From: Desulfobacterales bacterium | GTDB lineage: Bacteria > Desulfobacterota > Desulfobacteria > Desulfobacterales > SURF-7 | Assembly (NCBI GenBank): GCA_018693105.1 | Contig: JABHLN010000005.1 | Coordinates: 2,735-66,734, forward strand | Length of the DNA stretch: 64,000 bases | Direction: 5' to 3' | In this document: piece by piece, positions 11,502-46,248 of the stretch | Numbering within the stretch: the stretch's first letter is position 1 | How the letters are laid out: each line of letters opens with the position of its first letter | Notes under the pieces: generated by a model | Told to the model about the DNA's origin: nothing | Databases searched by the model: none | What the model saw: only the letters and a program-made list of their open reading frames with translations | Translations under genes and position numbers: made by a program

Positions 11502-12133
11502 TTATTATATATTCCAAAAAGCTGATTATAAATATTTAAATACAATGCAAATTTGTTGATCAGGAGTGAAGATATACATCTATTATGTCAAACCGCTTAT
11601 CAACCATCATAAAGCAATAATCTCACTATAGCAGTATTTACAACATCATCAAATAACATTAACCACAAATTAATAAAGTTTTTTCATTTTCAAGTCAAGA
11701 AAGCTTTACCCGCAGGATATAATAATAAGTGTTTGAACTTACAAATATCATTATTTTCAACCGCTCCATGGACACATATATTTTGTATCATGAAAACTCA
11801 CACATAAGAGTTCGTAAAGAAAAAACAGAGCTTGTCTCTGGAAAGCCGATTTACAAACAGGATAGATATTATTGCTAATTAATTTTTTTGCAGAAAATAG
11901 TATTTTTTCTTAACGATCTCTAATGTATTCAAATAGTTTCAAGTTAATAAATATAAGTACCCATTCCGCTGCACCGGGATAATAGTAAGGAGATATTATT
12001 GAACAAAACGGTTTTAATCTATAACAAGGTAATTTTAAGTTGAAATATAGCGACTTTAAATTATATATAATAAAAGTTGTAACAAAAAATCAGATCAATT
12101 TAATGGACCTTGCATATAAGGTTTTTTTACCTG

Positions 12134-13456
12134 ATGGATAAAAAAAGAAATAAATATATATTTAACAGGCTTGTTTTTCATTTTCGACCCCAAAATGTCC
12201 CTGAAAGCAACTTAATATTTAACCACACATGGGGATTAGGCGGCATTTCTGCCACCCTTGTCATACTTCTTTTTATTACCGGTATTTTATTGCAGTTCGT
12301 ATATGAACCTTTACCTGGAAACGCTTATGATTCAATTGTTTATTTGCAAAATGATGTGTTGTTCGGGAGGTTGATTCGAAATATTCATCATTGGAGTGCT
12401 AATATTCTAGTTTTGGCTGCTTTTCTTCATATGATGAGGGTTTATTTTACGGGCGGGTTTCACCACCCGCGTCGGTTTAACTGGATAATTGGCCTTTTTC
12501 TGTTTTTTTTGGTTCTTATTTCAAATTTCACCGGGTATCTTCTCCCATGGGATCAGCTTGGATTCTGGGCTGTTACAATATGTACCGGCATGGTTGAATA
12601 CATTCCGCTTTTTGGATCATGGCTTTTAAAAATTATAACCGGTGGTTCCGAGACCGGTTCACCATCTATTCTGTTTTTTTTCACTATTCATACCTCCGTT
12701 ATCCCCGTATTTTTGATAACTATAATGATGTTTCATTTCTGGCATGTAAGAAAGGCCGGCGGCATTGTTTCTCCTGTATCTCTCAGGAAAGAATCATGGG
12801 AGGAAAATAGTGGAGGGAAAGACAATAATACCAAAACAGTACAGCATCTCATAGTTCGTGAGCTGGTGGTAGCACTCGTATTGATTGCCTTTATCATGGT
12901 TTTTTCCATATTATTTGACGTACCATTACAGGAAAAGGCAAATCCCGGATTAAGTCCTAATCCGGCTAAGGCTCCTTGGTATTTTATGGGGATCCAGGAA
13001 ATTTTCTTACATTTTCATCCATTATTTACCGTATTTATTATTCCGGTAATTTTTACATCCGTACTCATTTTTCTGCCTTATATTAAATATGACTCAGATG
13101 TGTCAGGGGCCTGGTTTTTTTCCCGAAAAGGCCGTAAAATGGGGGTGGTAGCTTGTGTAACAGCGATCTTTGTGACACCTTTGGCCGTGATATATGATGA
13201 GTTTTTTGTTGATTTAAATTCATTAATTCCTCAGCTTCCGGAAATAATCAATACAGGTCTTTTCCCTGTTTTTATTATAATAGCTGCAATAACCATTTTT
13301 TATATATGGATTAAAAATCGGTATTCCGCTTCAAATAACGAAACTATTCAGGCTGTTTTCATATTACTTTCAGTATCATTTGTTATTCTTACCATAACCG
13401 GGGTCTGGTTCAGGGGTTCCGGAATGGCTTTAGCATGGCCTTTTACGGTTCTGTGA
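12134..13456 (+). CDS. Cytochrome b (fused b6-like N-domain and subunit-IV-like C-domain)
   Basis: His pairs in TM helices (RNIHHWSAN, FLHMMRVYF, FFTIHTSV, MMFHFWHVRK) and a C-terminal APWYFMG motif. I preferred the ATG at 12134 to the TTG at 12110. Confidence 0.8.
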   Translation: MDKKRNKYIFNRLVFHFRPQNVPESNLIFNHTWGLGGISATLVILLFITGILLQFVYEPLPGNAYDSIVYLQNDVLFGRLIRNIHHWSANILVLAAFLHMMRVYFTGGFHHPRRFNWIIGLFLFFLVLISNFTGYLLPWDQLGFWAVTICTGMVEYIPLFGSWLLKIITGGSETGSPSILFFFTIHTSVIPVFLITIMMFHFWHVRKAGGIVSPVSLRKESWEENSGGKDNNTKTVQHLIVRELVVALVLIAFIMVFSILFDVPLQEKANPGLSPNPAKAPWYFMGIQEIFLHFHPLFTVFIIPVIFTSVLIFLPYIKYDSDVSGAWFFSRKGRKMGVVACVTAIFVTPLAVIYDEFFVDLNSLIPQLPEIINTGLFPVFIIIAAITIFYIWIKNRYSASNNETIQAVFILLSVSFVILTITGVWFRGSGMALAWPFTVL

Positions 13457-13520
13457 GCTTATTTTTAACCGGTTTTCTGAGTTTATATTTAACCGGTTTC
13501 TAAGTTTATATTTAAATTGA
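13455..13520. repeat. Tandem direct repeat, ~2.7 copies of a 23-24-nt unit
   Basis: GAGCTTATTTTTAACCGGTTTTCT / GAGTTTATATTTAACCGGTTTCTA / AGTTTATATTTAAATTGA, beginning on the cytochrome b stop codon. Confidence 0.6.
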
Positions 13521-13701
13521 TACCTTTTACAAAACCTGTCTTTCTCTTAACGTTTTACAGGGTTGCACTTTTTTGCCTTATAGAATTAGCCTATGGTTGT
13601 CATGGGGCGGAAACCCTAATCCAATGTAGGAGGCCAAATCATCGAAAACCTCAATATATTCATTGGTTAATCATAAAACGTGGAAATGGTTTTTATATAC
13701 A

Positions 13702-13920
13702 TTATAGTGGTTCCCATAAATATGTTTCTTTTTATCCCGGTCCCCCATCAGAAAATTTTTTCAATCACCTGGCCGAACTAGCCCCTTAACGGTCCCTAAC
13801 TAAAATGTGGTAGTGTCGGGTAAAAATCGTGAAACCATGTTTTATGAAATGTTCTTTTTGTTAAACAGGAAGGCGTGGCCTTTTGATTTTTTATGATTTG
13901 ATTAAAGAGAAATACTATAA
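13702..13920. repeat. Family-D palindromic MITE-like repeat (shorter copy)
   Basis: TTATAGTGGTTCCCATAAATAT...CCCGGTCCCCCATCAGAAAATTTTTTCAATCACCTGGCCGAACTAGCCCCTTAACGGTCCCTAACTAAAAT aligns by eye with 54813..54916. The right end ...GAGAAATACTATAA is inverted relative to the left end. Confidence 0.5.
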
Positions 13921-14069
13921 TCAGCTGATACCGTACAAAAAAACAGGGGGGTGTCTAAGAAGTCGTTGCCTGTCGCGGATATTTAACTTGTTTTTCCTAC
14001 AAAAATTTTATATGAGTCATAATACAAAAGAAAAAAGAAACTATTATATAAAATTTTTAAGGAAGGGCA

Positions 14070-14345
14070 ATGAAATTCTGGCGAGTTCCACTGGATTCAG
14101 AAGAAGTACAGGTCACCTATGGTAGAGTGTATATCCTTGACGATCGATGTAAGGGGTGCGGGTATTGCATAGAGTTTTGTCCTCAGAGTGTTCTTCAGTT
14201 TTCCTCAAAATTCAATAAAAAGGGTTATCATCTGCCTGCTGTAGATAAGCCGGGCGAATGTCTGAGCTGTCACTACTGCGAGATAATATGCCCGGAATTT
14301 GCAATTTATTCTGTAGAATCAAACCCGGAAAAATCCAAAACGTAA
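14070..14345 (+). CDS. korD: 2-oxoacid:ferredoxin oxidoreductase delta subunit (2x[4Fe-4S] ferredoxin)
   Basis: Two CxxCxxCxxxCP motifs (CKGCGYCIEFCP, CLSCHYCEIICP). 91 aa, first gene of the kor cluster. Confidence 0.8.
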   Translation: MKFWRVPLDSEEVQVTYGRVYILDDRCKGCGYCIEFCPQSVLQFSSKFNKKGYHLPAVDKPGECLSCHYCEIICPEFAIYSVESNPEKSKT

Positions 14346-14388: not shown

Positions 14389-15534
14389 ATGAAAAAAGCA
14401 ATCCTTACAGGTGAACATTTTTTTACAGGAGATGTTGCATGCGCCGAAGGCGCATTGGCCGCCGGATGCCGTTTTTTTGGCGGATATCCCATTACTCCGG
14501 CAACAGAGATAGCTGAACGAATGGCATCCAGGCTTCCACATGTTGGGGGCTCCTATATTCAGATGGAGGATGAGATTGCAGCTATTGCATCTGTACTTGG
14601 CGCTTCATGGGCAGGTGTAAAAAGCATGACCGCAACCTCAGGCCCCGGATTCAGCCTCATGATGGAAAATCTTGGATTAGGCATCTGTACCGAAACGCCT
14701 TGTGTAATTGTAAATGTACAACGTGGCGGACCATCAACCGGACTTCCAACGCAGGGAGCCCAGGGTGATATGATGCAGTCAAGGTGGGGGTCTCATGGAG
14801 ATTATGAAATAATAGTTCTTGCACCATACTCTCCACAGGAAATTTTCTATCAGACAATAACTGCATTTAATTTGAGCGAAACCTATCGTATTCCGGTATT
14901 GATAATGACCGATGAGATAGTAGGGCATATGAGTGAAAAAGTTATTATACCGGATTCAAGAAAGGTAAAAACCATATCCCGTACTGCACCAAAAGGCCGA
15001 AAAGACAGGTTCAGGTTGTTTGAGCCGGGGCCAAATGGTGTTGCTCCGATGCCTGCAGCGGGCCAGGGGTATAATGTACATGTAACCGGTCTTACCCATG
15101 ATGAAAAAGGCTATCCTGTCATGACTGTTGATACACAGGTTGAAATGATGGACAGGCTCACCGGAAAAATCAGGAATAATCTTGATGATATAATAATGAC
15201 TGAAAGCTATATGATGGATGATGCTGAAATTGTACTGGTTTCTTATGGTGTTTCCGCCCGTACATGCCTTGCTGCAGTTGACCAGGCAAGAAAAAGCGGA
15301 ATCAAGGCCGGGATGTTCCGTCTTATAACTGTATGGCCGTTTCCTGAAGAAGAGATCAAGAAGATTGCTGAGAGAGTAAAAGGTTTTATAACTGTTGAAA
15401 TGAATCTTGGCCAGATTCACAGGGAAGTACAGCGGTGTGTAGGAGGTAAAGTTCCGGCTGTTCTTGTGGGGCATCATGGAGGAACAATCATTCCCCCTGA
15501 GGATGTTTTGAAAAAGATGAAGGAGACTTTTTAA
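14389..15534 (+). CDS. korA: 2-oxoacid (probably 2-oxoglutarate):ferredoxin oxidoreductase alpha subunit
   Basis: Typical N-terminus GDVACAEGALAAGCRFFGGYPITPATEI. 381 aa. Confidence 0.85.
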   Translation: MKKAILTGEHFFTGDVACAEGALAAGCRFFGGYPITPATEIAERMASRLPHVGGSYIQMEDEIAAIASVLGASWAGVKSMTATSGPGFSLMMENLGLGICTETPCVIVNVQRGGPSTGLPTQGAQGDMMQSRWGSHGDYEIIVLAPYSPQEIFYQTITAFNLSETYRIPVLIMTDEIVGHMSEKVIIPDSRKVKTISRTAPKGRKDRFRLFEPGPNGVAPMPAAGQGYNVHVTGLTHDEKGYPVMTVDTQVEMMDRLTGKIRNNLDDIIMTESYMMDDAEIVLVSYGVSARTCLAAVDQARKSGIKAGMFRLITVWPFPEEEIKKIAERVKGFITVEMNLGQIHREVQRCVGGKVPAVLVGHHGGTIIPPEDVLKKMKETF

Positions 15535-15537
15535 ATT

Positions 15538-16380
15538 ATGGGAGGAAGCCCGGATATTTCAAAAAAACAGCTTGATCATCCTTTAGATGATCTTATTCGT
15601 ACTGATCGTCTTCCGCATATATGGTGTGCAGGGTGCGGTATCGGAACCGTTTTTTCATCATGTCTGACAGCAATTAAAGCCAGTGAATTAGAACTTAATA
15701 ATATTTCAATGGTTTCAGGCATTGGGTGTTCCGGTCGTGCCGCCGGTTATGTTAAACTTGACTCCTTTCACACAACTCATGGAAGAGCTATTCCGTTTGC
15801 AACAGGTTTGAAACTGGGCAACCCGGATCTTAACGTAATTGTTTTTTCCGGTGACGGAGATCTTTTTGCCATAGGCGGGAATCATATGATTCATGCCGCA
15901 AGACGCAATATGGATATTACAGTAATCTGTGTAAATAATCTGAATTACGGTATGACAGGCGGTCAGGTTGCAGCCACTACACCCCATATGGCAAAATCAA
16001 CCACAACCCCTTCAGGAAATCCTGAAGATCCTTTTAATCTACCCCTGCTTGCTTATGCTTCGGGCGCCACCTATGTTGCCCGATGGACAATGCTCCATAC
16101 AAGAGAGCTGACAAGTTCAATACAGGAGGCGATATTAAAAAAGGGTTTTTCTTTTATTGAAGTACTTTCTCCATGCCCTGTAAATTATGGTAGACGAAAT
16201 AAAGAGAAAGCCCTTGATACCTTGAAACTTTACCAGGAAAAAACAATTATTCGAAATGGCGCTATTCCTGCCGGCCTTGATATTGACTTTTCCAAAGAGG
16301 TGGTTTTAGGAAAATTTGTTGATGTTGAACGAGACACTTATATCGAAAGATATGAAAAGATATGCAGGCAGGAATCCTAA
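15538..16380 (+). CDS. korB: 2-oxoacid:ferredoxin oxidoreductase beta subunit (TPP-binding)
   Basis: WCAGCGIGT Cys motif and the GDGD TPP/Mg motif (FSGDGDLFAIGGNH). Confidence 0.85.
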   Translation: MGGSPDISKKQLDHPLDDLIRTDRLPHIWCAGCGIGTVFSSCLTAIKASELELNNISMVSGIGCSGRAAGYVKLDSFHTTHGRAIPFATGLKLGNPDLNVIVFSGDGDLFAIGGNHMIHAARRNMDITVICVNNLNYGMTGGQVAATTPHMAKSTTTPSGNPEDPFNLPLLAYASGATYVARWTMLHTRELTSSIQEAILKKGFSFIEVLSPCPVNYGRRNKEKALDTLKLYQEKTIIRNGAIPAGLDIDFSKEVVLGKFVDVERDTYIERYEKICRQES

Positions 16381-16410: not shown

Positions 16411-17007
16411 ATGACCAATATACAGGATAATAAAAAGGAAGTAGTAATTACCGGATTCGGCGGGCAGGGTATTGTTCTTGCCGGAACTATTCTGGGAAAG
16501 GCCGCGGCTTTGGGGGATCACAGAGAAAGTACCCTGGTTCAGTCTTACGGTCCCGAGTCTCGTGGAGGAGCATGCAGTGCCCAGGTGGTTATTTCCGACA
16601 CAATAATTTTTTATCCCTATATCAAGACGCCGGACGTGCTTGTATGCATGTCACAGGGTGGTTACGACAAATATATCGGCGATCTTCCTGATGACGGAAT
16701 TCTTATTATAGATCATGACCTCGTAAAGGCTAAACGCAAGGTTAAAGAATTTTATTCAATTTCTGCAACACGTATAGCTGAAGAGCTTGGTCGGAAAATG
16801 ATGGCAAATATTATAATGATTGGTTTTGTTACAGCTGTTACAAAAATTATATCTATGGATGCCGCACAGGATACTGTCGTTAAATCGGTTCCTAAAGGCA
16901 CAGAAGAGATGAACTTAAAAGCCTTTAATAGAGGAAGTGATTACGGTCTGTCAGTCCTTAAAGGGCGTGAGAAAAAGGCAGAAGGCCGAACAGGAGCGGT
17001 TTCATGA
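16411..17007 (+). CDS. korC: 2-oxoacid:ferredoxin oxidoreductase gamma subunit
   Basis: ITGFGGQGIVLAGTILG motif. 198 aa. Its stop overlaps the hdrL-like start (ATGA at 17004..17007). Confidence 0.85.
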   Translation: MTNIQDNKKEVVITGFGGQGIVLAGTILGKAAALGDHRESTLVQSYGPESRGGACSAQVVISDTIIFYPYIKTPDVLVCMSQGGYDKYIGDLPDDGILIIDHDLVKAKRKVKEFYSISATRIAEELGRKMMANIIMIGFVTAVTKIISMDAAQDTVVKSVPKGTEEMNLKAFNRGSDYGLSVLKGREKKAEGRTGAVS

Positions 17008-20000
17008 AGGGCTCAAAGGACAGACTTCACCGGGTTATCGTTATTGGCGCTACACCGGCGGGAATATCAGCGGCCAATAAACTTGGCGAACTGGATATCC
17101 CGGTTACACTGGTAGACACTGACTATGATCTGGATAAAAAATTATCCTGTGAGGAGTGGCGTTTAAAATCAGGGGTTCCCTTAAACTTTGCCCATCGTTC
17201 AGGGCTTATAAGGCTTTTTAGAAACCCCGGGGTGAGATGTATTCTGCCTATGGAAATCACCTCGCTCAAACATACTCCTCAAGGATTTCGCATGCGCTTT
17301 AACAGGCAGCAGACATTTATTGATCCTGATAAATGTACACTATGTGGCAGATGTTATGATATTTGTCCCGCTTTTGTACCCGAGGATGGTAAGGCTGTTA
17401 AGCTAAACAGCAGGCAGAGTCTGCCGGGTCGGGCAGTTATTGAAAAGGGCCGTAAGCCGCTCTGTCAGGAAAACTGTCCACTTGGTGTTAATGCCCAGGG
17501 ATATATAACTCTTACAAAGGCCGGCAGGTATGCGGAAGCTTTAAGCCTTGTGAGGGAAAACAATATTCTTCCGGGTATTTGCGGCAGGATATGTACCCAT
17601 CCTTGTGAAGACGAATGTAGAAGGGGTGAACTGGATGATGCTATTGCCATTCGTGATATCAAGAGGTTTCTGGCAGACCATGAACTCTCGGATAAATCTT
17701 TGCGTATGGAAGAAGTTGAAGCTGAAAAACAGGTAAAACAGGTAAAAAATGAAAAGATTGCCGTTATAGGTTCAGGTCCATCAGGGCTTGCAGCAGCGGC
17801 AGATCTTGCTCGTCTTGGGTATCAGGTGACAATTTTTGAAAAAGAAGCTAAAGCCGGGGGATTGCTCAGATATGGAATAGGACCCCATCGTCTACCAAGA
17901 GAGATTCTCGATAAAGAACTAGAATATATTGAAAACATTGGTATTAGGATTGAAACATCCACGCCGGTTGATTTAAAAAAAGGATCGGAAAGTCTTGATA
18001 AGGTTTTAAAAGAATATGATGCTGTAATCTTTGCTGTTGGAACATGGTCTGATCGCTGCCTTGGAATTCCGGGAGAAGATCTTCAAGGGGTTGAAGGTGG
18101 TCTTTCTTTTTTAAATCGCCTTTACAGGGAAGATATAACCGAATTGAAAAGTAAGGTTGCTGTAATTGGAGATGGAAATTCAGCATTTGATCTTGGTAGA
18201 ACATTGTCCCGAATAGGGGCGGATGTAACTATACTTTCATGGTTCCCGGAAGATCTTGTTCCTGCCGATTCTGAAGAAGTACTTGCTGCCGGCAAGGAAG
18301 GCATTAAAATAAAATGTTCTCTGCAGGTTGTTGAGTTTAAAGGGAAAAACGGAAAGGTGGAAAGTATCGTCTGCAGACAGACTGCCCCGGGAGAGCCTGA
18401 TGAAAACGGGGTTCCCTGGCCGGTTATTGTGCCGGCCGGTGAGACGCTTGAGCTTGAGTTTGACAGAGTATTTGTAGCAACAGGCCAGCAGGGCTCTTTT
18501 ACCGGTATTGACAGTAAAATCAAGATGAATGATCATGGCTATATAAAGGTGGATGATAATAGCCGAACAAATATAAAGAAAGTTTATGCCACGGGAGATA
18601 CCGTTTCCGGTCCTTCTTCTGTTGTCAGTGCAATGTCTTCGGGGCGAACTGCTGCACAAAAGGTGCATCAGGACATCTCCGGGATGGCTATGGACGAGAC
18701 GGCAGGTGTAATTACAATACGGCCGGAAGAAAATGAATTCAGAAAAATACCTGATAACGTTCCGTCCCAGATGCGACCGGCAATGCCGGAGATAAGGGCT
18801 GATATTCGCAGAAATAATTTTTCAGAGGTTGCTGTCGGGCTGAGTGAATCCCAGGTGATTTCAGAGGCAGGGCGTTGCCTTCAGTGCGGTTTATGTTCTG
18901 AATGTCTTGAATGCGTTGTCGTATGCGGGGCAACAAAGGCGGTAAATCATGCTGAATCCTGCGAAGAACTTATTGAACATGCAGGAGTTGTTATTATAGC
19001 CGATCCTTCAATTGCTCCTACGGTCAAGGGTGAGGATGTGATTCGTGCCTACGGGCCCAGGTCGGCAAAAACAGATGTATATGCCATGTACGTTCGCGGC
19101 TTTGCTTCAGCGGCACAAGCTATGATGCTTCTTGGAAAGACATCTCAAAGGCCAAAAGGGCATGGAGTATCATTTTCTCCCCCTGATCCTGGATTATCAC
19201 CGGAAATTCGTCTTGGGATTTTTGTCTGTAAGTGTAATGAATCCCTTGGGTGGCTTGATGAAATGAACAGGTACGTAGAAGAACTGACATCTAATGAGGA
19301 TGTGGTTCATTCGGAAATACTAAACTCTGCATGTGTACCAGAAGATACAGCAGGTATAATAAGAACGATTCGGGAAAAAGGAATTACACGTGTTGTTCTT
19401 GCATCCTGTGTATGCTGCCCGCTGAACTTTGTCTGTAACTCATGTACCGATCAGAGGAGCCGTCTTAAAGAAAATCTTTTTAAAGGTACCGGAATAAGTC
19501 GCTCAATGATAGAAACATGCAATATTCGTGGAGAGGCTCTTCGCCTTGTTGAAAAAGATGCTTCTCTTGCTTTAAGCCGATTTGAGGGTATGCTGGAACG
19601 TTCGGTGAACAGGGGAAGAAGGCTAAAACCGCTTCCAGCCCCTGCAAGGGACTATAATTTTAATACCGCTGTTATAGGTGAGTCGGAAGCGGCTATAAAC
19701 AGTGCTTTGACTCTTGCAGAATCAGGTGTTGAGGTTTTCTTATTCGGAATATCTCAGGCGCCACCTGTTGATGTGAAAAATCATCTCAATGTACATTTTT
19801 TTGAAAATTCCACTGTAAAAGCGATTACGGGAACAGTGGGAAATTTTCAGGTTTTTATTGAATCCAACGGTTTCAAACAGAGTATAAATGTTGGTGCCCT
19901 TATAATTGGAGAGAAGACAAGGAAGGATATTCATTATATTCATCAGGATGGCCTGCCTGGCAGAAGTGTACGGTCGGTAATGCAGAAAGCAGGAGTTACC

Positions 20001-20390
20001 GGAATACCGTTTTTTTATCCCGGGGCTACAGCAATTTCCGGACTTTATCTGGCAGATCCTCCCGGCATAAATGTTTCAAACAGGCAAAAAGGGGCTGCGG
20101 CCGCTGCCCATGCCATAGCTATCATGCCACGTGGTCCGCGACAGAGCAGGGGTTTTACTGTTGTAATTGATGAAAATAGATGCAGGGGATGTGGTCGTTG
20201 TGACATGGTATGTCCATATCAGGCAGTATCCCTTCAGAAGAACCAGGTAGAAGGCTGGTATGCGACTGTTGATGAGGCTCTTTGCAAAGGATGCGGTAAT
20301 TGTATATCAGTATGTCCTTCGAGTGCTGCCGATAGCCCATACCGCAACCATTCCTCACTGGAAAATATGCTTGAGGAAATACTGGAATAA
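17004..20390 (+). CDS. hdrL: Giant HdrL-like NAD(P)H-binding flavo-iron-sulfur protein (GltD-like module embedded in HdrA-like domains)
   Basis: 1128 aa. Rossmann motifs VIGATPAG, VIGSGPSGLAAA, VIGDGNSA. GltD-like CQENCPLGV...GRICTHPCEDECRRG. Several CxxCxxCxxxCP clusters. HdrA-like GIFVCKCNESLGW and the terminal pair CRGCGRCDMVCP/CKGCGNCISVCP. Confidence 0.8.
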   Translation: MKGSKDRLHRVIVIGATPAGISAANKLGELDIPVTLVDTDYDLDKKLSCEEWRLKSGVPLNFAHRSGLIRLFRNPGVRCILPMEITSLKHTPQGFRMRFNRQQTFIDPDKCTLCGRCYDICPAFVPEDGKAVKLNSRQSLPGRAVIEKGRKPLCQENCPLGVNAQGYITLTKAGRYAEALSLVRENNILPGICGRICTHPCEDECRRGELDDAIAIRDIKRFLADHELSDKSLRMEEVEAEKQVKQVKNEKIAVIGSGPSGLAAAADLARLGYQVTIFEKEAKAGGLLRYGIGPHRLPREILDKELEYIENIGIRIETSTPVDLKKGSESLDKVLKEYDAVIFAVGTWSDRCLGIPGEDLQGVEGGLSFLNRLYREDITELKSKVAVIGDGNSAFDLGRTLSRIGADVTILSWFPEDLVPADSEEVLAAGKEGIKIKCSLQVVEFKGKNGKVESIVCRQTAPGEPDENGVPWPVIVPAGETLELEFDRVFVATGQQGSFTGIDSKIKMNDHGYIKVDDNSRTNIKKVYATGDTVSGPSSVVSAMSSGRTAAQKVHQDISGMAMDETAGVITIRPEENEFRKIPDNVPSQMRPAMPEIRADIRRNNFSEVAVGLSESQVISEAGRCLQCGLCSECLECVVVCGATKAVNHAESCEELIEHAGVVIIADPSIAPTVKGEDVIRAYGPRSAKTDVYAMYVRGFASAAQAMMLLGKTSQRPKGHGVSFSPPDPGLSPEIRLGIFVCKCNESLGWLDEMNRYVEELTSNEDVVHSEILNSACVPEDTAGIIRTIREKGITRVVLASCVCCPLNFVCNSCTDQRSRLKENLFKGTGISRSMIETCNIRGEALRLVEKDASLALSRFEGMLERSVNRGRRLKPLPAPARDYNFNTAVIGESEAAINSALTLAESGVEVFLFGISQAPPVDVKNHLNVHFFENSTVKAITGTVGNFQVFIESNGFKQSINVGALIIGEKTRKDIHYIHQDGLPGRSVRSVMQKAGVTGIPFFYPGATAISGLYLADPPGINVSNRQKGAAAAAHAIAIMPRGPRQSRGFTVVIDENRCRGCGRCDMVCPYQAVSLQKNQVEGWYATVDEALCKGCGNCISVCPSSAADSPYRNHSSLENMLEEILE

Positions 20391-20419: not shown

Positions 20420-21997
20420 ATGGATAAATATAAAATCATACTGTTTTTATGCAACTGGGGACCTCATGCTGCATTTCAGGCGTTGCAGGACAATAGAGAT
20501 GCAATTCCTTCTGAAATTCATATGGTTAGAATTCCATGCACCGGAAGGATCAGTAAATCACTTCTTCTGAAGGCATTTGAAAAAGGTGCAGATGGTGTTA
20601 TTCTTATGGGGTGTAGGCATGGATCCTGTCATTATGGAACCGGGACCGAGACTGCTGAAAAAAACACAGAGGACACAAGAAAAATTATTGAAACACTGGG
20701 GATTGGGAAAGAGCGCCTTAAATTTGTTACATTTCATCCGGATGAATCTGATTTGCTCCTTGAATTTCTGAATAGTTTCACCAAAGAGATTGCTTCTTAC
20801 AGTCATACTCATGTCACCAGGAGCAAGGACCCTGAACCATGGGTCGAAAAATCAATTGAAGAAATTGTTTCAAAGCATGATGTGTTTGCCTGCCAGGATT
20901 GTGGAAAATGCACATCCGCCTGCCCTCTTGCACTCACCGGGAAACCTTTTTCACCAAGGGCTGTGGCGGCTGCTGTGATTTCAGGTGAAGTAAATGATGA
21001 ATCAGTAAAAAACGATATATGGTCATGCCTTACATGTGGAATATGTTATGACAGGTGTCCTTCTGCCGTTAATTTTCCAGAGTTTATAAGGGATGTTCGC
21101 TGCTATTACAAAAACAGGGAAATTACCGGACAGGAAACTCATGGCGGTTTTTTTCAATCTCTCATGCGTACAATGACTTCATCGGACCTGAAACCAACCC
21201 CCTGGAGCTGGCTTCCTGAAGAAATCAAAACAGACAGTAACAGCAAGGTTCTTTTTTTTGGGGGCTGTGCACCTTATTTCGACATTTTTTTTAGGGAATT
21301 TCTTGGAGTAAAAACCTGCAATATTCTGGCTGACAGTCTGCGCCTCTTAAACTTTTTTGATATTCAACCTGCAATTTTGGAAGAAGAAAGATGTTGCGGA
21401 CATGATCTGTTGTGGTCAGGCGACAGGGAAAACTTTACAAGACTTGGAAAAATTAATGCTGACCGGATTCACCAAATGGGAATCGAGGAAGTAATTACAT
21501 CCTGCCCCGAGTGTTACAGAACTCTGGCGTACGATTACCCGGAACATGGTATAGAATTGAATTTTAAGGTCACCCATTTATATGAGCTGCTTGAAAATGA
21601 AATTAATAAAGGAGCGGTTCAGTTCAAGAAGATTAATAAGAAACTTACAATTCAGGATTCATGCCGTTTGAACCGTTTTGAAAATATCTATGATCAATCA
21701 AGAAAGCTTATTAACCGTATTAATCCTGAGTCTTTTACAGAAATGCAGAACAACGGAAAGACTTCAATCTGTTGTGGAAACAGTGCATGGATCGGTTGTG
21801 ATTCCTTTAGCAAAGCTCTTCAGGTAAAACGGCTCAATCAGGCTCATGATACAGGGAGTGATGTTCTTGTTACATCATGCCCTAAATGCCAGATTCATCT
21901 TAAATGTGCCATGGAAGATCCTTTTAGAGAAAATGAACTTAAAATTGAGACAATGGATTTAACCAGTATAATAGCTAAAACACTTCGCTGGGAGTAA
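20420..21997 (+). CDS. MvhD-like / HdrC-like / HdrB-like (CCG domain) fusion protein
   Basis: N-terminal MvhD fold (LFLCNWGPHAA...IPCTGRIS...GCRHGSCHY). Two ferredoxin motifs (CQDCGKCTSACP, CLTCGICYDRCP). CCG motifs (ERCCGHD, SICCGNS). Confidence 0.8.
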   Translation: MDKYKIILFLCNWGPHAAFQALQDNRDAIPSEIHMVRIPCTGRISKSLLLKAFEKGADGVILMGCRHGSCHYGTGTETAEKNTEDTRKIIETLGIGKERLKFVTFHPDESDLLLEFLNSFTKEIASYSHTHVTRSKDPEPWVEKSIEEIVSKHDVFACQDCGKCTSACPLALTGKPFSPRAVAAAVISGEVNDESVKNDIWSCLTCGICYDRCPSAVNFPEFIRDVRCYYKNREITGQETHGGFFQSLMRTMTSSDLKPTPWSWLPEEIKTDSNSKVLFFGGCAPYFDIFFREFLGVKTCNILADSLRLLNFFDIQPAILEEERCCGHDLLWSGDRENFTRLGKINADRIHQMGIEEVITSCPECYRTLAYDYPEHGIELNFKVTHLYELLENEINKGAVQFKKINKKLTIQDSCRLNRFENIYDQSRKLINRINPESFTEMQNNGKTSICCGNSAWIGCDSFSKALQVKRLNQAHDTGSDVLVTSCPKCQIHLKCAMEDPFRENELKIETMDLTSIIAKTLRWE

Positions 21998-22012: not shown

Positions 22013-24442
22013 ATGCAAGTAAAAAGTATGACTTCAGCAGACTCGGAAAAACAGGCCAGGATAGGTGTATATGTCTGTCATTGCGGTCTTAATATTAGCA
22101 AGACTGTTGATTGCGCCAAGGTTGCCGAGGTTTCAAAGGAACTTGAATATGTTGTAGAGGCAAAAGATATTGCCTATGCCTGTTCGGAACCAGGTCAGAA
22201 GGAAATCGTAGATGGTATCATTGATAATGACCTTGACCGTATAGTGGTTGCCTCCTGTTCACCCAGGCTTCATGAACCTACATTCCGTCAGATGCTCCAG
22301 AAGGCCGATTTGAACCCCTATATGCTGGAAATGGCCAACCTTCGGGAGCAATGCAGCTGGGTACATATGAGTGAACCGGAAGCTGCGACCCGAAAGGCAT
22401 TAGACCTTGTTAAAATGTCTGTATCACGAGCAGCTCTTCTATGGCCGCTTTTTGAAGAGACACTACCCCTTACAAAACGGACGATGGTTATCGGAGGAGG
22501 AGTGGCTGGTATCCAGGCGGCTCTTGACCTTGCAGATAACGGATATGAAGTGGTTATGGTTGAAAAAAACCCGTCTATCGGGGGTACCATGGCCAAGCTT
22601 GATAAGACCTTTCCAACTATGGACTGCTCAATCTGAATTCTCGGTCCGAAGATGACGGATGTCGGTCGACATCCAAACATAAAAATGCTCACCATGAGTG
22701 AAGTAGTTGGCATTAAAGGTTATGTCGGTAATTTCAAGGTAGAAATCTTAAAACGGGCTCGATATGTAGATGAAAGCGAATGCACAGCATGCGGTGATTG
22801 TGTAAAAGTATGCCCCGTTGTCAGATCTGACGAATTTAATGAGGGCCTGTCTTCACGCAAGGCTATCTATTCGCCTTTCCCACAGGCGGTTCCATCCTCT
22901 TATTTAATTAATGTTAATGAATGTCTGGGGCATAACCCTTCGGTTTGTTCAAAATGTCTGGATGCATGTGACAAGAAATGTATCGATTTTCAGATGTCAG
23001 ATGAAAAGATTGTTGAAGAAATAGGTACTATAATAGTTGCCACCGGCCTGGAACCGTATGATCCCAAGGAACTTGATGAATACGGATATACAAGATATGA
23101 AAATGTTCTGACAAGTCTTGAATTTGAACGTCTTGTTAATGCCGGTGGTCCGTCACAGGGAGAACCGATCCGGCCTACAGATAGAAAAACCCCTAAATCT
23201 GTTGGTTTTATTCAATGCGTAGGATCCCGGTCAGCCCGAAGGGGAAGTGAATACTGTTCAAATACCTGTTGTATGAATACTGTAAAAAGCTCACTGGTAC
23301 TCAAGGAACATTACCCTGATATTGATATAAAGGTTTTTTATGTTGATATTCGTGCTTTTGGAAAAGGCTTTGAAGACCTTTATATGCGCAGCAAGCGATA
23401 TGGAGTTCAATATTTAAGAGGTTTGCCGGGTACTGTTGAAGAACTTGATGATTCAAGCTTAAGAGTTGCAGTTGAAAATACTGCAACTGGTAAGGTTGAA
23501 TATCATGATCTGGATATGCTTGTGCTTGCCCTTGGTATGAAACCGGCAAAAAGTACACAACGGCTGCAGGAAATGCTTGGTTTGCAGCTTAATCCTGACG
23601 GTTTTTATCTTGAAGCCCATCCTAAACTTCAGCCTGTTGATGCAGCTACAAGGGGAATATTTTTTGCAGGTTGTGCCGAAGGACCAAAAGACATCAAGGA
23701 AAGTGTTACCCAGGCTTCTGCGGCATCTGTCCGTGCTATCAGGCTTATGCATAAAGGAGAAATATCAGCTGAGCCGATTACTTCTGAAATTATCGAAGAG
23801 AACTGTAAGTTCTGCGGGAAGTGTGCAGAGGTTTGTCCCTATAATGCCATTTCGTTAAATAAAGAGAAAAAGATTCCTGCTTCTGTTAATACTGCTGCAT
23901 GTTCAGGTTGTGGAACATGCGCGGCCGAATGTAAGTTTGATGCTATTATCATGAATCATTTTACAGATGATCAGATCAATAGTCAGACAGATGCAATGCT
24001 GGTGGAAGAACCTGAATCAAAAATCGTTGTTTTTGCATGTAACTGGTGTTCATATGCCGGTGCAGATTATGCGGGTGTTTCCCGGTTTCAATATCCTCCC
24101 AATGCAAGGTTGATAAGAACCATGTGTTCCGGTCGTGTTGATGAAAAGTTTATTATGCGGGCCTTTGAAAAGGGTGCCCCGGTTGTCCTTGTAAGTGGTT
24201 GCCATATTGGAGATTGTCATTACATTGATGCAAATAAGTGGACTGAAAAAAGGATAATAAAACTTCAGGGAAAACTGGAAAAAATAGGGATAAGGCCTGA
24301 ACGGCTCCAGCTGGAATGGATCAGTGCTGCAGAAGGTATGAGGTTTGCCGATGTCATGCGGCAAATGGAAGATCTTCGCAAAAGTGTTTCCAGCGAAGAG
24401 ATTGCGGAAACTATCGAAATTCTTGAAAACAGGAAGAAATAG
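22013..24442 (+). CDS. hdrA: Heterodisulfide reductase subunit A with a C-terminal MvhD domain; selenocysteine read-through of TGA at 22634..22636
   Basis: ORFs 22001..22636 and 22652..24442 are in the same frame (offset 651 nt). Joined they read ...KTFPTMDCSI-U-ILGPKMTDVGRHPN, the conserved HdrA motif. Also VIGGGVAGIQAALDLA, four ferredoxin motifs, and C-terminal FACNWCSYAGAD...GCHIGDCHY. ATG at 22013 is preceded by GGGGA. Confidence 0.85.
22657..22674 (+). promoter_or_regulatory. Candidate bacterial SECIS hairpin
   Basis: GGATGTC-GGTC-GACATCC forms a 7-bp perfect stem with a GGUC tetraloop. It starts 21 nt after the in-frame TGA. A GGUC-containing apical loop is the hallmark of the E. coli fdhF SECIS. 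Confidence 0.55.
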
Positions 24443-24803
24443 TTACATTTTGACACAACTATACCCACCCGGTTTTGACCAGGGTTTAATAAAGAAATTT
24501 TTAAAGGGCTGTTAAAAAATCTACTCAATATTATCAGCAGGACACTTTTTCTTGACCCCCGGTATATATCACCGTCACTAATTTTATTTCCCTTAAATAA
24601 ACTCATCTTACCAGTATACGAGGACTACGGGACATGATGAATCCTCCTTTCTCTCTTTATTTTGGGATAATTTTGCTAAAAACAACAATGTTTTTAACCA
24701 AAAGAAAATATTATATGTATTTATTTTAACTATATATATACATTTTTGAAGTCATTTAATTATATAAAATTATGTAATTGATTGAAATTTTAGTACAATT
24801 TTC

Positions 24804-24831
24804 TTGACTTAATGGTATTTTATGATAATTA
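24804..24831 (+). promoter_or_regulatory. Possible sigma70-type promoter (TTGACT-N16-TGaTAATTA)
   Basis: -35 TTGACT at 24804..24809 and extended -10 TGATAATTA ending at 24831, ~300 nt upstream of the porin gene. The context is AT-rich, so chance matches are likely. Confidence 0.25.
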
Positions 24832-25138
24832 GCCATAACTAAAGCACAATGATGCGAACCTTATTATAAGAAACAAAACCTTAAATTAAGCACATGACAT
24901 TTTAAAACTCAGTTATTATGGGGTGTGGGGAATCACAAAAAATGGTAAAAAAGATTCCTTAATAAATACTTGTTCGTATTAATTGTGGTGAAAAAAGGTA
25001 GCCATCGTTTAATTTTTTAATCAGTATATGGCAGTATGAATTATTAAGGTTGACTTTTTTCGAATGTTTCATTAGTTGTTCATGATTTTTAATTTATAGG
25101 GGAAATTAACTTAAAAGATTTATTGGGGAGGGTTGGAA

Positions 25139-29820: not shown

Positions 29821-30025
29821 CCAGGGTAATAAACGTTCCCGGTCTTTAAACTGTTTCAGTAAAAACTCTTTTTTATGGCATCAATGTGTTGCCTTTTTAA
29901 AAATTAACAATAATAGTCAAAACACAGTCCGAAATCTTTAAAGGATTAATTTTACTACCAAAAAGAGCCTTCTAAGAACTATTTTTTATATTAACAGTTG
30001 GTTATAAATGCTTGCTTGGTCCGAC

Positions 30026-30193
30026 CTATTTCTCATCAAACGTCCGGGTATTGTCACTGAAGATTGTGTAGACCTGATTAGGGAAATCCTGGACAGAATC
30101 ATCAAGAATCGAAAAGAGAGGTTTTTCAAATCCTGAAACTTCACATGGTACGCCTTGGGGCCATTTGTCAGTGGGCCAGGGTTGTAATGTCAT
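30026..30193 (-). pseudogene. Truncated 5' remnant (55 codons) of an acyl-CoA synthetase paralog
   Basis: Translates MTLQPWPTDKWPQGVPCEVSGFEKPLFSILDDSVQDFPNQVYTIFSDNTRTFDEK*. This matches the N-terminus of the 27471..29210 product up to ...FSD.TRTF, then stops. Confidence 0.75.
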
Positions 30194-30317
30194 AATATCC
30201 TCCTTACAATCTCTTTTTGTGAAAGTTAGAAGTATTATATTTAGTCATTTAAAACCTGCTCCCCGGGGACAGTTGAAGATCCCGTGACGAATTGAGGTCG
30301 GACAAAGCTTATATTTT
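30034..30317. repeat. Direct duplication, copy 2
   Basis: See 29054..29333. It includes the same RBS context and the conserved upstream block CCGGGGACAGTTGAAGATCCCGTGACGAATTG.GGTCGGACAAAGCTTATATTTT. Confidence 0.8.
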
Positions 30318-30502
30318 GATATTTTATTCCTTTAAACCATAGGCAGTCTCTTTCTATATCGTTCTTTTCGGCATAAAAAACAAGGTTTTTTGCCTAAAAC
30401 CAGGCGATTTTAATACAAAATATTGCTCGGTTTCATATAATTATCTTGGTTCTATCCTAAAGCTGATTAGTTAACTGGCCACTTAATAATATGGTTCTTT
30501 CC

Positions 30503-30529
30503 TTGACATCTTCAATAGAATGGTAATAG
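30503..30529 (+). promoter_or_regulatory. Possible sigma70-type promoter (TTGACA-N15-TGgTAATAG)
   Basis: Perfect -35 TTGACA at 30503..30508 and an extended -10-like TGGTAATAG ending at 30529, 34 nt upstream of the zinc-ribbon gene. Confidence 0.3.
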
Positions 30530-30562
30530 TGGTACTTAACGGAAAAAAAACGGAGAAATGCT

Positions 30563-30817
30563 ATGCCGATATTTGAATTTAAATGTATGAAATGCGAAGA
30601 GTTCGTCGAATTTTTAGTAATGAAAGATAGTGACGAGCATGAGGTTGTCTGTCCGAAATGCAAGTCTGAGAATCTGGAACGTGTTTTAAGCAGTACCAAT
30701 TACAGTATGAAGTCTGCCCCTGGCGGCGGTGGTGGTGCCGCTGAACAATCATGCGCCCAGACAAGAACCTGCTCAGGCGGGTCATGTACAACATATAATA
30801 TACCCGGTGAATGCTAA
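30563..30817 (+). CDS. FmdB-family zinc-ribbon protein
   Basis: MPIFEFKCMKCEE...VCPKCKS (CxxC...CxxC) with a Gly/Cys-rich tail, typical of this family. AACGGAGAA RBS-like sequence upstream. Confidence 0.8.
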   Translation: MPIFEFKCMKCEEFVEFLVMKDSDEHEVVCPKCKSENLERVLSSTNYSMKSAPGGGGGAAEQSCAQTRTCSGGSCTTYNIPGEC

Positions 30818-30959
30818 AGACCTTTGAATAGCATCCCTTTTTGTCCAATTTCTTTGTCAGACTCAAATTTTAAACCTCGAAATACTTAATGTATTCCTCC
30901 GGTTAAAATTTTCGTCTTCCTTGAACTTGAACAAAAATAAACACTTTTCAAAGGTCTTT
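30816..30959. repeat. Family-C palindromic MITE-like repeat with perfect 13-bp terminal inverted repeats
   Basis: AAAGACCTTTGAA (30816..30828) is the exact reverse complement of TTCAAAGGTCTTT (30947..30959), and the arms pair imperfectly throughout. The element overlaps the TAA stop of the zinc-ribbon gene. Confidence 0.7.
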
Positions 30960-31086
30960 TAGATAACTTATACTCCTTTTTGCCCGAGTAGAACTATATT
31001 TTAAATGTTAAATTTGTTCCTTCGGATAAAGCCCTCTTTAGTCGTATAAACCATCGAAACACTTAACGTAATCCTTAAGCCTGTTA

Positions 31087-32313: not shown

Positions 32314-32552
32314 AGTAATATCTCCTTTTTTGAAAAATCCGAAGCGCTCTTTCTAAAATCGTTTTAAAACTTCTATAGAATAAAAATTAATAATATACAG
32401 CCTATCAACTTATTAAATACAATCTGTATGAAAAACCCCAGATTATATATATGTATGCAAGCAGTTAAAGAATGCTTGGTATATTATTGAAATTTAAAAA
32501 GTAGTTTCTTATCCTGATCTGAACTGATTTATATGAATTTTTAAATATTATT

Positions 32553-32612
32553 TAGACCTGATTTCAAGAATACATCCATCGAACCCAATCCGCATATTTT
32601 ATATGGGTTCTA
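32553..32612. repeat. Family-B repeat, minimal copy
   Basis: TAGACCTGATTTCAAGAATACATCCATCGAACCCAATCCGCATATTTTATATGGGTTCTA. The ends are inverted, and the CGAACCCAATC core is shared with the other B copies. Confidence 0.35.
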
Positions 32613-32881
32613 AATTATGTTGTTAAAAAATGTTTGTGATACATTTAGATGTTTCTATTGCTCAGGGACACTTACTCTTAAGCGGAATCTTTTTACTTGA
32701 AATTATATTAATTCCGCATTATCGGATATACAGCAAACAGTGAGTCAATAAATGTCTTCTTTGAGGATATTGTGCTTGAATCTTCAACAAGACTAAGTTT
32801 AATATATTGATATCAAGTTAAAAACGATGTAATATTACTCGAGATTACCTGAGGTGTCAATTTTATAATTCTATCTTAATT

Positions 32882-33039
32882 TAATGGAATCGTAAAAAAA
32901 GTCTCCATTTGAATTGTTATAGCGTTTGATCAGACTCTCGAAATACTACAAGTATGACTTATCGACCGGCTATCCATTATTTATTGTATATGAAGAATTT
33001 TTACTTTGATATAGTTTATGGCTTTGTACGAGTTTATCA
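32882..33039. repeat. Family-A MITE-like repeat (degenerate copy)
   Basis: TAATGGAATCGTAAAAAAAGTCTCCAT...TGTATATGAAGAATTTTTAC...TTGTACGAGTTTATCA aligns with 39233..39385. Confidence 0.6.
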
Positions 33040-33106
33040 ATTTTGTTTCTGGTCAATGCTTTTCTTATCAACGATCGTTAATTTAAACCATCCAGAGTAG
33101 AGCTTT

Positions 33107-44973: not shown

Positions 44974-46248
44974 ATGCTGGAATTGAAATATGTTAGACAA
45001 AATATTGATGCAGTTAAACGCGTTCTTATTGATCGAAATGATTCTACTGATCTTGATAAATTTGAAAAATCTGAAGCAAAGCGACGAGAGATTCTGGTTG
45101 AAATTGAGGCTTTAAGAAATAGTAGAAATGTAGTCTCTGATGAAATCGCAAAGATGAAACGCCAGGGGGAAAATGCAGATACACTTGTTAGTGATATGCG
45201 CACAGTTTCTGCAAAGATCAAAGAGATTGAAAAAACCTTATCTGAAAATGAGGAAATTGTAAAAAACACACTTATAAGTATACCGAATATTCCTCATCCT
45301 TCAGTTCCGGTTGGAAATGATGAAAGTGACAACTCGCTTGTAAGGCAGGTTGGTAACATACCGGATTTTAATTTTAAACCGCTTGCTCACTGGACACTTG
45401 GTGAAAACCTGAAAATACTGGATTTTGAAAAAGCTTCAAAGATTACCGGAGCGCGATTCCCGTTATATATGGGAGCAGGTGCAAGGATTGAAAGAGGGTT
45501 GATTAACTTTATGCTTGACCTTCATACAGGTGAGCATGGTTACACGGAGGTTTTACCCCCGTTCATTGTTAATCGAAATTCAATGACAAATACCGGACAG
45601 CTTCCAAAATTTGAGGAGGACCTTTTTAAGCTTGATGGATGGGATTATTATCTGATACCAACAGCCGAGGTGCCGGTAACAAATATTCTTCAGAAAGAAA
45701 CGCTGGATGAATCAACGTTGCCCGTTAAATATACCGCCTGTACCCCATGTTTCAGATCAGAAGCCGGTTCATACGGCAAAGATACCAGGGGCTTAATCAG
45801 GCAACACCAGTTTAATAAGGTTGAACTGGTAAAATTTGCTCATCCTGATAAGTCCTATGATGAACTTGAAACACTTTTAAATAATGCCGAAGAGGTGCTT
45901 AAGCGCCTTGAACTGCCTTACCGGGTGGTTTTACTCTGTACTGGTGATTTAGGTTTCTCTGCAGCAAAAACATATGATATAGAAGTATGGATGCCCGCAC
46001 AGGGTATGTATCGGGAAATTTCATCATGCAGTAATTTTGAGAGCTTTCAGGCAAGACGTGGAAATATCAGGTTCAAAAGCAAGGGGAAAAAAGGAACCGA
46101 GCTTGTTCACACTTTGAATGGTTCAGGGTTGGCTGTTGGTCGCACAGTGGCTGCCATATTGGAAAACTATCAACAGGAAGACGGGTCTGTTGTTATTCCT
46201 GATGGTTTGCGCCCTTATATGGGAAATATGGAAAGAATTCAGTTATGA
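44974..46248 (+). CDS. serS: Serine--tRNA ligase
   Basis: N-terminal coiled-coil arm, class II motifs ([16 protein letters not shown]). 424 aa. Confidence 0.95.

Follow-up and report, generated by a model that had tools for sequence, protein, structure and literature searches.

Does a UGA codon in the middle of an HdrA reading frame end a gene in an uncultured Desulfobacterales bacterium, or is it read as selenocysteine (Sec)? The question is raised by a 64,000-nucleotide (nt) stretch of contig JABHLN010000005.1, the whole of which was analyzed and is called the window here. In it, a TGA at 22634-22636 ends one open reading frame (ORF; 22001/22013-22636), and a second ORF (22652-24442) continues in the same frame, the two ORF starts being 651 nt apart. 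The TGA is the sole internal stop of the merged frame (22013-24442, + strand, as are all features within it). Reading through it gives a product of 809 codons with Sec as residue 208 (U208) and the junction peptide KTFPTMDCSI-U-ILGPKMTDVGRHPNIK. These features are as described in a preliminary description made from the sequence alone, which had also claimed that gene callers would split the gene. They do so in every public assembly examined, into pieces of 211 and 596 amino acids. The ATG at 22013, the start of the ORF that ends at the TGA, is preceded by GGGGAAAAAG. From the comparisons below we hold with high confidence that 22013-24442 is one complete gene for a Sec-containing HdrA2-type flavo-iron-sulfur protein, with the UGA at 22634 almost certainly read as Sec.

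One alternative is that TGC or TGT was misread or misassembled as TGA, a single base change being enough. The same gene with the same TGA is found in three independent public assemblies of the organism, with 0-3 mismatches over 2430 nt, so a sequencing error is excluded. Together with the TGA at 146 other loci described below, this refutes the explanation, and its probability is negligible. The arrangement also goes well beyond chance: the TGA at 22634-22636 is the only one in the window that links two ORFs of at least 50 codons outside any other gene. Other in-frame TGAs that link long ORFs were set aside, as they lie within genes read in a different frame or where gene ends overlap.

To determine what the merged frame encodes, we compared its product with protein families and structures. 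The merged protein scored 1200.8 bits against the NCBIfam model for HdrA2 (NF040770), above the curated cut-off of 1100, and its match spans positions 1-775 of the 777 in the model. To the crystallized HdrA of Methanothermococcus thermolithotrophicus (5ODC_A) it aligns over residues 14-663 with E=4e-228 and no large gaps, and to MvhD (5ODC_D) over residues 666-786. As the two alignments cover successive parts of the protein, it is a fusion of HdrA and MvhD. Pfam found the FlpD, Fer4 and Pyr_redox_2 domains in it, and the domain set of HdrA2 is present in full: the N-terminal iron-sulfur domain, the flavin adenine dinucleotide (FAD)/thioredoxin-reductase domain, the inserted and C-terminal ferredoxin domains, and MvhD. 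The C-terminal MvhD/FlpD domain (24023-24373; PF02662 at residues 671-787, E=3e-48) is of the Cys type (CNWCSY), with no second Sec. Homology runs unbroken through the UGA site, and the offset of the 5ODC alignment places residue 208 on Cys197 of the methanogen protein. In the HdrA of Methanococcus maripaludis the homologous residue is Sec197 (PMC13518236). U208 is predicted to close a CxxU motif, C205-S-I-U208 (22625-22636), which in homologue alignments corresponds to the thioredoxin-reductase-like redox or ligand motif of HdrA.

The preliminary description had stated that HdrA normally carries Cys at this position. Full-length proteins (780-835 amino acids, 59-73% identical) make up 93 of the 120 best database hits, and all 93 of these listed homologues have Cys in the residue-208 column, within the motif DCSIC[IV]L[GA]PKM. 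DCSIC was invariant in 26 aligned Cys-type homologues. The other 27, the window's own among them, are the most similar (78-82% identity for the rest) and are fragments some 600 amino acids long. All but one of them start at MTD[VA]GRHP, the first Met after the TGA, and the remaining one starts at the next Met, 13 residues on. Since the fragments begin at the first Met after the TGA, the closest relatives are split at the same point. Protein-database searches consequently return only Cys-type relatives as full-length proteins, because the gene calls split the Sec-type genes. That Sec variants of HdrA are known, another statement of the preliminary description, is documented for methanococci and Deltaproteobacteria (PMC1794560, PMC2702500, PMC13518236).

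At the DNA level, a scan of a genome collection gave 80 loci in representatives of different Desulfobacterota species, namely those nearest to the query, and a metagenome scan seeded with Cys-type proteins gave 80 further loci. Protein identity to the window gene is only 68-80% in the closest genome loci. A TGA is present at the site in 78 of the 78 genome loci that include it. Of the 80 metagenome loci, 68 have TGA and 12 have TGT or TGC. With the window, 147 loci are of the TGA type (the window and 146 others) as against 20 Cys-type genes with TGT or TGC, the 12 metagenome loci among them; every locus came from a search that started from this gene or from relatives of it, which biases the ratio of Sec to Cys. 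DC[SA]I-TGA is invariant in the TGA-type loci, and neither TAA nor TAG was found at the site in any of the 147. The assignment of 22634-22636 as a Sec codon thus draws on the Cys column, on the conservation of TGA and on the alignment with Cys197/Sec197.

It could still be that the gene is truly split or decaying, giving a 207-residue fragment and a 596-residue protein from the ATG at 22652, or nothing functional. The gene callers yield exactly these two products, and 15 nt separate the TGA from the ATG. These 15 nt are five codons (22637-22651) that would be translated only if the UGA is read through, and they bear on the point. They encode ILGPK in all 147 TGA-type loci while using three codons for Ile, five for Leu, four for Gly, four for Pro and two for Lys. 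Because the variation is synonymous only, these codons are translated. Purely synonymous variation of this kind cannot be squared with an untranslated spacer separating two genes, and it points to purifying selection at the protein level after the TGA, which contradicts the possibility, left open in the preliminary description, that the homologues are genuinely split here. There is also no conserved Shine-Dalgarno or ribosome-binding site before the internal ATG at 22652, the bases there being the Gly-Pro-Lys codons. The stop is always TGA, never TAA or TAG, and a break at this point would cut the FAD domain at its redox motif. We regard a split or decaying gene as very improbable.

If one gene is read through a UGA, a bacterial selenocysteine insertion sequence (SECIS) would be expected just downstream. 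A hairpin is present at 22657-22674, formed by GGATGTC-GGTC-GACATCC, with a perfect 7-bp stem (22657-22663/22668-22674) and the 4-nt apical loop GGUC (22664-22667), as the preliminary description had noted. The TGA is separated from the stem by 20 nt and from the loop by 27 nt. On its own the hairpin folds with -9.4 kcal/mol, and it is the centroid structure of the fold of 22634-22700. In the consensus for bacterial SECIS elements, 4-16 bp of upper stem carry a loop of 3-9 nt whose first or second position is G (usually G[G/U]), the loop lies 16-37 nt from the UGA, and the minimum free energy is at most -7.5 kcal/mol (PMC13188914; 2026 review). The window hairpin agrees with it on every point: a 4-nt loop, a 7-bp stem, a loop that starts with GG, a spacing of 27 nt and -9.4 kcal/mol. 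A scan of the whole window with Rfam returned no family at the gathering thresholds, which has no bearing on the hairpin. A conserved lower SECIS stem was considered and rejected; although some loci fold with one in RNAfold, the window does not, and the feature lacks conservation.

The hairpin is kept in 147 of 147 TGA-type loci. It overlies the codons ACG GAT GTC GGT CGA CAT CC for the peptide T-D-V-G-R-H-P, and conservation of the amino acids could in principle yield a hairpin without any selection on the RNA. Three results show that this is not its origin: frozen synonymous sites, a compensatory base pair, and the Cys-type genes. Synonymous sites in the stem are frozen across the TGA-type loci, with Asp encoded by GAT in 147/147, Val by GTC in 104/104 and His by CAT in 147/147. 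For contrast, an Asp nine codons upstream is encoded by GAC in 112 loci and by GAT in 35, and flanking four-fold and six-fold codons have entropies of 1.3-2.2 bits. The Gly codon of the loop is GGT in 142 of the 147. The apical loop itself is GGUC in 142 loci, GGGC in four and GGCA in one, with the GG at its start invariant. Pair 6 of the stem is U-A in 88 loci, C-G in 43 and U-G in 16, and C-A does not occur. At the codon level this change is from Val GTC with Arg CGA (U-A) to Ala GCC with Arg CGG (C-G), U-G being the intermediate. Among distinct rows of the alignment, 99.2% of cells are paired; shifting the 3' partners by 1-3 columns lowers this to 23-58%. Neither the observed pairing nor the covariation score was reached in any of 500 shuffles.

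The 20 Cys-type genes do not form the hairpin; only 3-6 of the 7 pairs are possible and the stem codons are variable. The mean energy of the 22-nt hairpin segment is -5.0 kcal/mol in the 12 Cys-type metagenome loci versus -11.0 in 113 TGA-type loci. The peptide ILGPKMTDVGRHPNIT is encoded unchanged in six of the 20. In these six genes Val is GTG or GTT and never GTC, Gly and Arg are each written with four different codons, and His is CAC in four. Fisher tests of Cys-type against TGA-type codons gave nominal p values of 1e-7 for His and 3e-18 for Val. Taken together, the comparisons support selection on the hairpin at the RNA level in TGA-type genes only. This also speaks against a split gene. 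The annotation of 22657-22674 as a bacterial SECIS hairpin is based on the folds and on conservation over the 147 loci.

The Cys-type HdrA2 genes with the identical local peptide sit in neighbourhoods of another kind, beside formate-dehydrogenase-like molybdopterin genes, DUF166 or other MvhD genes. These genes are paralogous subfamilies, not Cys counterparts of the present operon. Part of the stem is formed by an Arg codon, and in the closest Cys-type proteins this residue is Lys. A more distant clade among the metagenome loci, with KTYPTMDCSI-TGA, has the same hairpin.

Several observations weigh against reading the UGA as Sec. Pfam and NCBIfam scans of the approximately 47 ORFs of the 64-kb window found no SelA, SelB or SelD. 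ARAGORN found no tRNA in the window, and no tRNA-Sec is among the 10 tRNAs in the 160 fetched loci, whose flanks likewise show no selA, selB or selD. The fold of 22634-22700 had been suggested in the preliminary description; it did return the hairpin as its centroid, but its energy as a single sequence is no better than that of shuffles (z = -0.82), so the significance of the hairpin rests on comparative data. In those data five of the seven stem pairs are invariant, and the direct covariation amounts to one pair plus the constraint on synonymous sites. The sequences compared are phylogenetically related, so the p values given above are only indicative. Finally, the spacing of 27 nt between UGA and loop and the lack of a bulged U differ from the fdhF SECIS of Escherichia coli.

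The absence of sel genes from the window would suit a split gene. It would likewise suit insertion of a standard amino acid at the UGA, namely Cys, Trp or Gly, either through a reassigned code or through suppression that is independent of a SECIS. In silico, the inserted residue is not distinguishable. TGA is, however, a normal stop in this DNA, ending 13 of the 47 other ORFs of the window, among them mutL, serS, the cytochrome b gene and the gene for the gamma subunit of a 2-oxoacid:ferredoxin oxidoreductase (OFOR). Because of this, the code is the standard bacterial one and the UGA at 22634 is recoded locally. The conserved hairpin fits the consensus for a SelB-binding SECIS, with GG invariant at the start of the loop, and the homologous position is occupied by Sec in the M. 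maripaludis HdrA. We give insertion of a standard amino acid hardly any weight. From the gene and its hairpin we infer that the organism decodes Sec. Use of Sec is documented in relatives of the same order, whose selenoproteomes are very large and include HdrA; Desulfobacterium autotrophicum HRM2, for one, encodes selA-D and 31 selenoproteins (PMC2702500), and Syntrophobacter fumaroxidans has seven Sec-HdrA genes (PMC1794560).

The window also encodes a seryl-tRNA synthetase (SerS, 44974-46248). Seryl-tRNA synthetase charges tRNA-Sec with serine, but it is a housekeeping gene and no evidence for the Sec trait.

With Sec as the preferred reading, decoding would follow what we infer to be the standard bacterial SECIS mechanism. 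The UGA at 22634 would be decoded as Sec during translation, the mRNA hairpin 20 nt downstream offering its GGUC apical loop 27 nt after the UGA. SelB carrying Sec-tRNA(Sec) would bind this loop and deliver Sec in competition with release factor 2. The thioredoxin-reductase-like FAD domain would carry U208 in its CxxU motif, at the position that in methanogen HdrA is part of the electron route joining the bifurcating FAD with the N-terminal [4Fe-4S] cluster. Two structural readings of this position have been published for methanogens. An earlier interpretation of the crystal structure makes Cys197 complete the coordination of a [4Fe-4S] cluster across the dimer, as fourth ligand to the N-terminal cluster of the partner HdrA (PMC9012536). 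A 2026 cryo-electron microscopy study of M. maripaludis found density between cluster A3 and the FAD that involves Sec197 and a Cys, which its authors read as a possible selenenylsulfide relay while calling the role unresolved (PMC13518236). Under both readings, position 197 is on the electron path of a bifurcating flavoprotein. The strong conservation of Sec across the TGA-type loci adds a small argument that the Cys/Sec197 position matters catalytically.

The result is a correction of annotation and not a discovery: the family and the mechanism are already known, and Sec-HdrA has been catalogued in Deltaproteobacteria since 2006. The gene is to be annotated as one selenoprotein of 809 residues, and not as two fragments or a pseudogene. 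The split gene calls hide that most of the sampled DNA loci of the subfamily are of the Sec type. For the organism, the gene marks what is presumably a Sec-decoding anaerobe with a selenium-dependent HdrA-type enzyme.

The Sec-HdrA2 gene is the last of a co-directional string of seven (+ strand) with a four-subunit OFOR at its head. The OFOR delta subunit (14070-14345) is a 91-residue ORF with two CxxCxxCxxxCP motifs. It is followed by alpha (14389-15534), beta (15538-16380) and gamma (16411-17007); hits to Pfam POR_N/PFOR_II, TPP_enzyme_C and POR are spread across the four-subunit enzyme. Next comes an HdrL-type protein of 1128 residues (17004-20390), in which Pfam and NCBIfam recognize an NfnB/GltD-like NAD(P)H module (residues 145-651) and a truncated HdrA-like module. 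The sixth gene (20420-21997) encodes an MvhD domain fused to HdrC/HdrB-like modules, a 4Fe-4S dicluster and two CCG domains (Pfam FlpD, Fer4_8, CCG). The gene order is kept across the 80 Desulfobacterota genome loci: the MvhD-HdrC/B gene is syntenic in 79, HdrL in 76 and OFOR gamma in 53, the last count limited by flank length, as the fetched flanks stop short of delta, alpha and beta. A scan for consensus promoters and terminators was uninformative, with no more sites than in shuffles.

The HdrA-like module of HdrL keeps its N-terminal iron-sulfur domain and has a deletion of about 26 residues exactly at the CxxC/CxxU loop of HdrA. This shortened module may depend on the neighbouring Sec-HdrA2 for the loop residue; the idea of complementary HdrA pairs has been put forward before (PMC9012536). 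A second Sec site in HdrL homologues, suggested by an apparent conserved stop, was rejected, as it arose from tblastn cross-alignment of the HdrA-like module onto the HdrA gene. With lower confidence than for the Sec codon, the gene string appears to encode a flavin-based electron-bifurcating or confurcating complex. Such a complex would link ferredoxin from 2-oxoacid oxidation, NAD(P)H via HdrL, and a disulfide such as DsrC via the CCG protein, in a sulfate-reducing member of the Desulfobacterota. A point to set against this proposal is that the function of the whole complex is drawn from domain content and synteny. As substrate of the HdrA complex in such bacteria, DsrC has been proposed (PMC5947623). 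A more specific and speculative version, which we consider rather unlikely, is that Sec-HdrA2 forms a heteromer with HdrL in which U208 supplies the missing selenolate ligand or an Se-S relay. Together they would form an electron-bifurcating complex of a kind not yet characterised, which oxidises 2-oxoacids, is linked to NAD(P)H, depends on selenium and is conserved across Desulfobacterota.

About 600 bp upstream of the OFOR-Hdr string and on the same strand, a gene at 12110-13456 encodes a cytochrome b/b6-type membrane protein of 448 residues (Pfam Cytochrome_B, E=4e-44). Four intergenic stretches of 0.6-1.3 kb (13457-14069, 24443-25132, 29821-31086 and 32314-33106) contain no ORF of at least 100 amino acids and no Rfam match at the gathering threshold.

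How does the gene compare with known systems? Its nearest published counterparts are the Sec-HdrA proteins of Deltaproteobacteria/Desulfobacterota, for example from S. fumaroxidans, D. autotrophicum HRM2 (hdrA1/hdrA2) and the Olavius delta symbionts, which belong to the same family. Like the window gene, these have an in-frame UGA for a conserved Cys with a SECIS within the coding region, and they are associated with MvhD and HdrL-type proteins (PMC1794560, PMC2702500, PMC1976440). The likeness is drawn at the level of the family; the window copy differs in coming from an uncultured organism and in being split in public gene calls. The string as a whole resembles the 'HdrAL/POR' cluster of S. 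fumaroxidans (Sfum_0012-0018), cited as undetected (PMC5947623). Sec-HdrA was the fourth largest bacterial selenoprotein family in the 2006 list (PMC1794560, Table 1) and is still listed in current reviews (PMC13188914). Within HdrA2 (NF040770), the listed full-length database members are of the Cys type, whereas the window protein is of the Sec type.

The HdrA proteins of M. maripaludis (Sec197) and M. thermolithotrophicus (Cys197, 5ODC) share with the window protein the N-terminal, FAD and two ferredoxin domains and the homologous residue. Unlike them, the window protein is fused to MvhD and has OFOR and HdrL as partners, with no Mvh/Vhu hydrogenase and no coenzyme M/coenzyme B (CoM/CoB) context. 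The means of Sec insertion also differ: in archaea the SECIS lies in the 3' untranslated region, whereas the window gene has a bacterial-type hairpin inside the coding region.

For the hairpin, the best reference is the SECIS of E. coli fdhF. The 46-nt sequence of this element is 100% identical to fdhF in the listed records, and 5419 of 5426 complete E. coli genomes contain it. Its fold has the apical loop GGUC, which bears out the statement in the preliminary description that GGUC is the fdhF loop. Like the window hairpin, the fdhF SECIS is in frame and just 3' of the UGA, and the apical loops of the two are identical. In fdhF the loop begins 18 nt 3' of the UGA, and next to the loop the upper stem is broken by the classical bulged U17, whereas in the window the loop begins 27 nt after the UGA on a perfect 7-bp stem, with no conserved lower stem. 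By this comparison the window element would work like the fdhF SECIS without being a copy of it.

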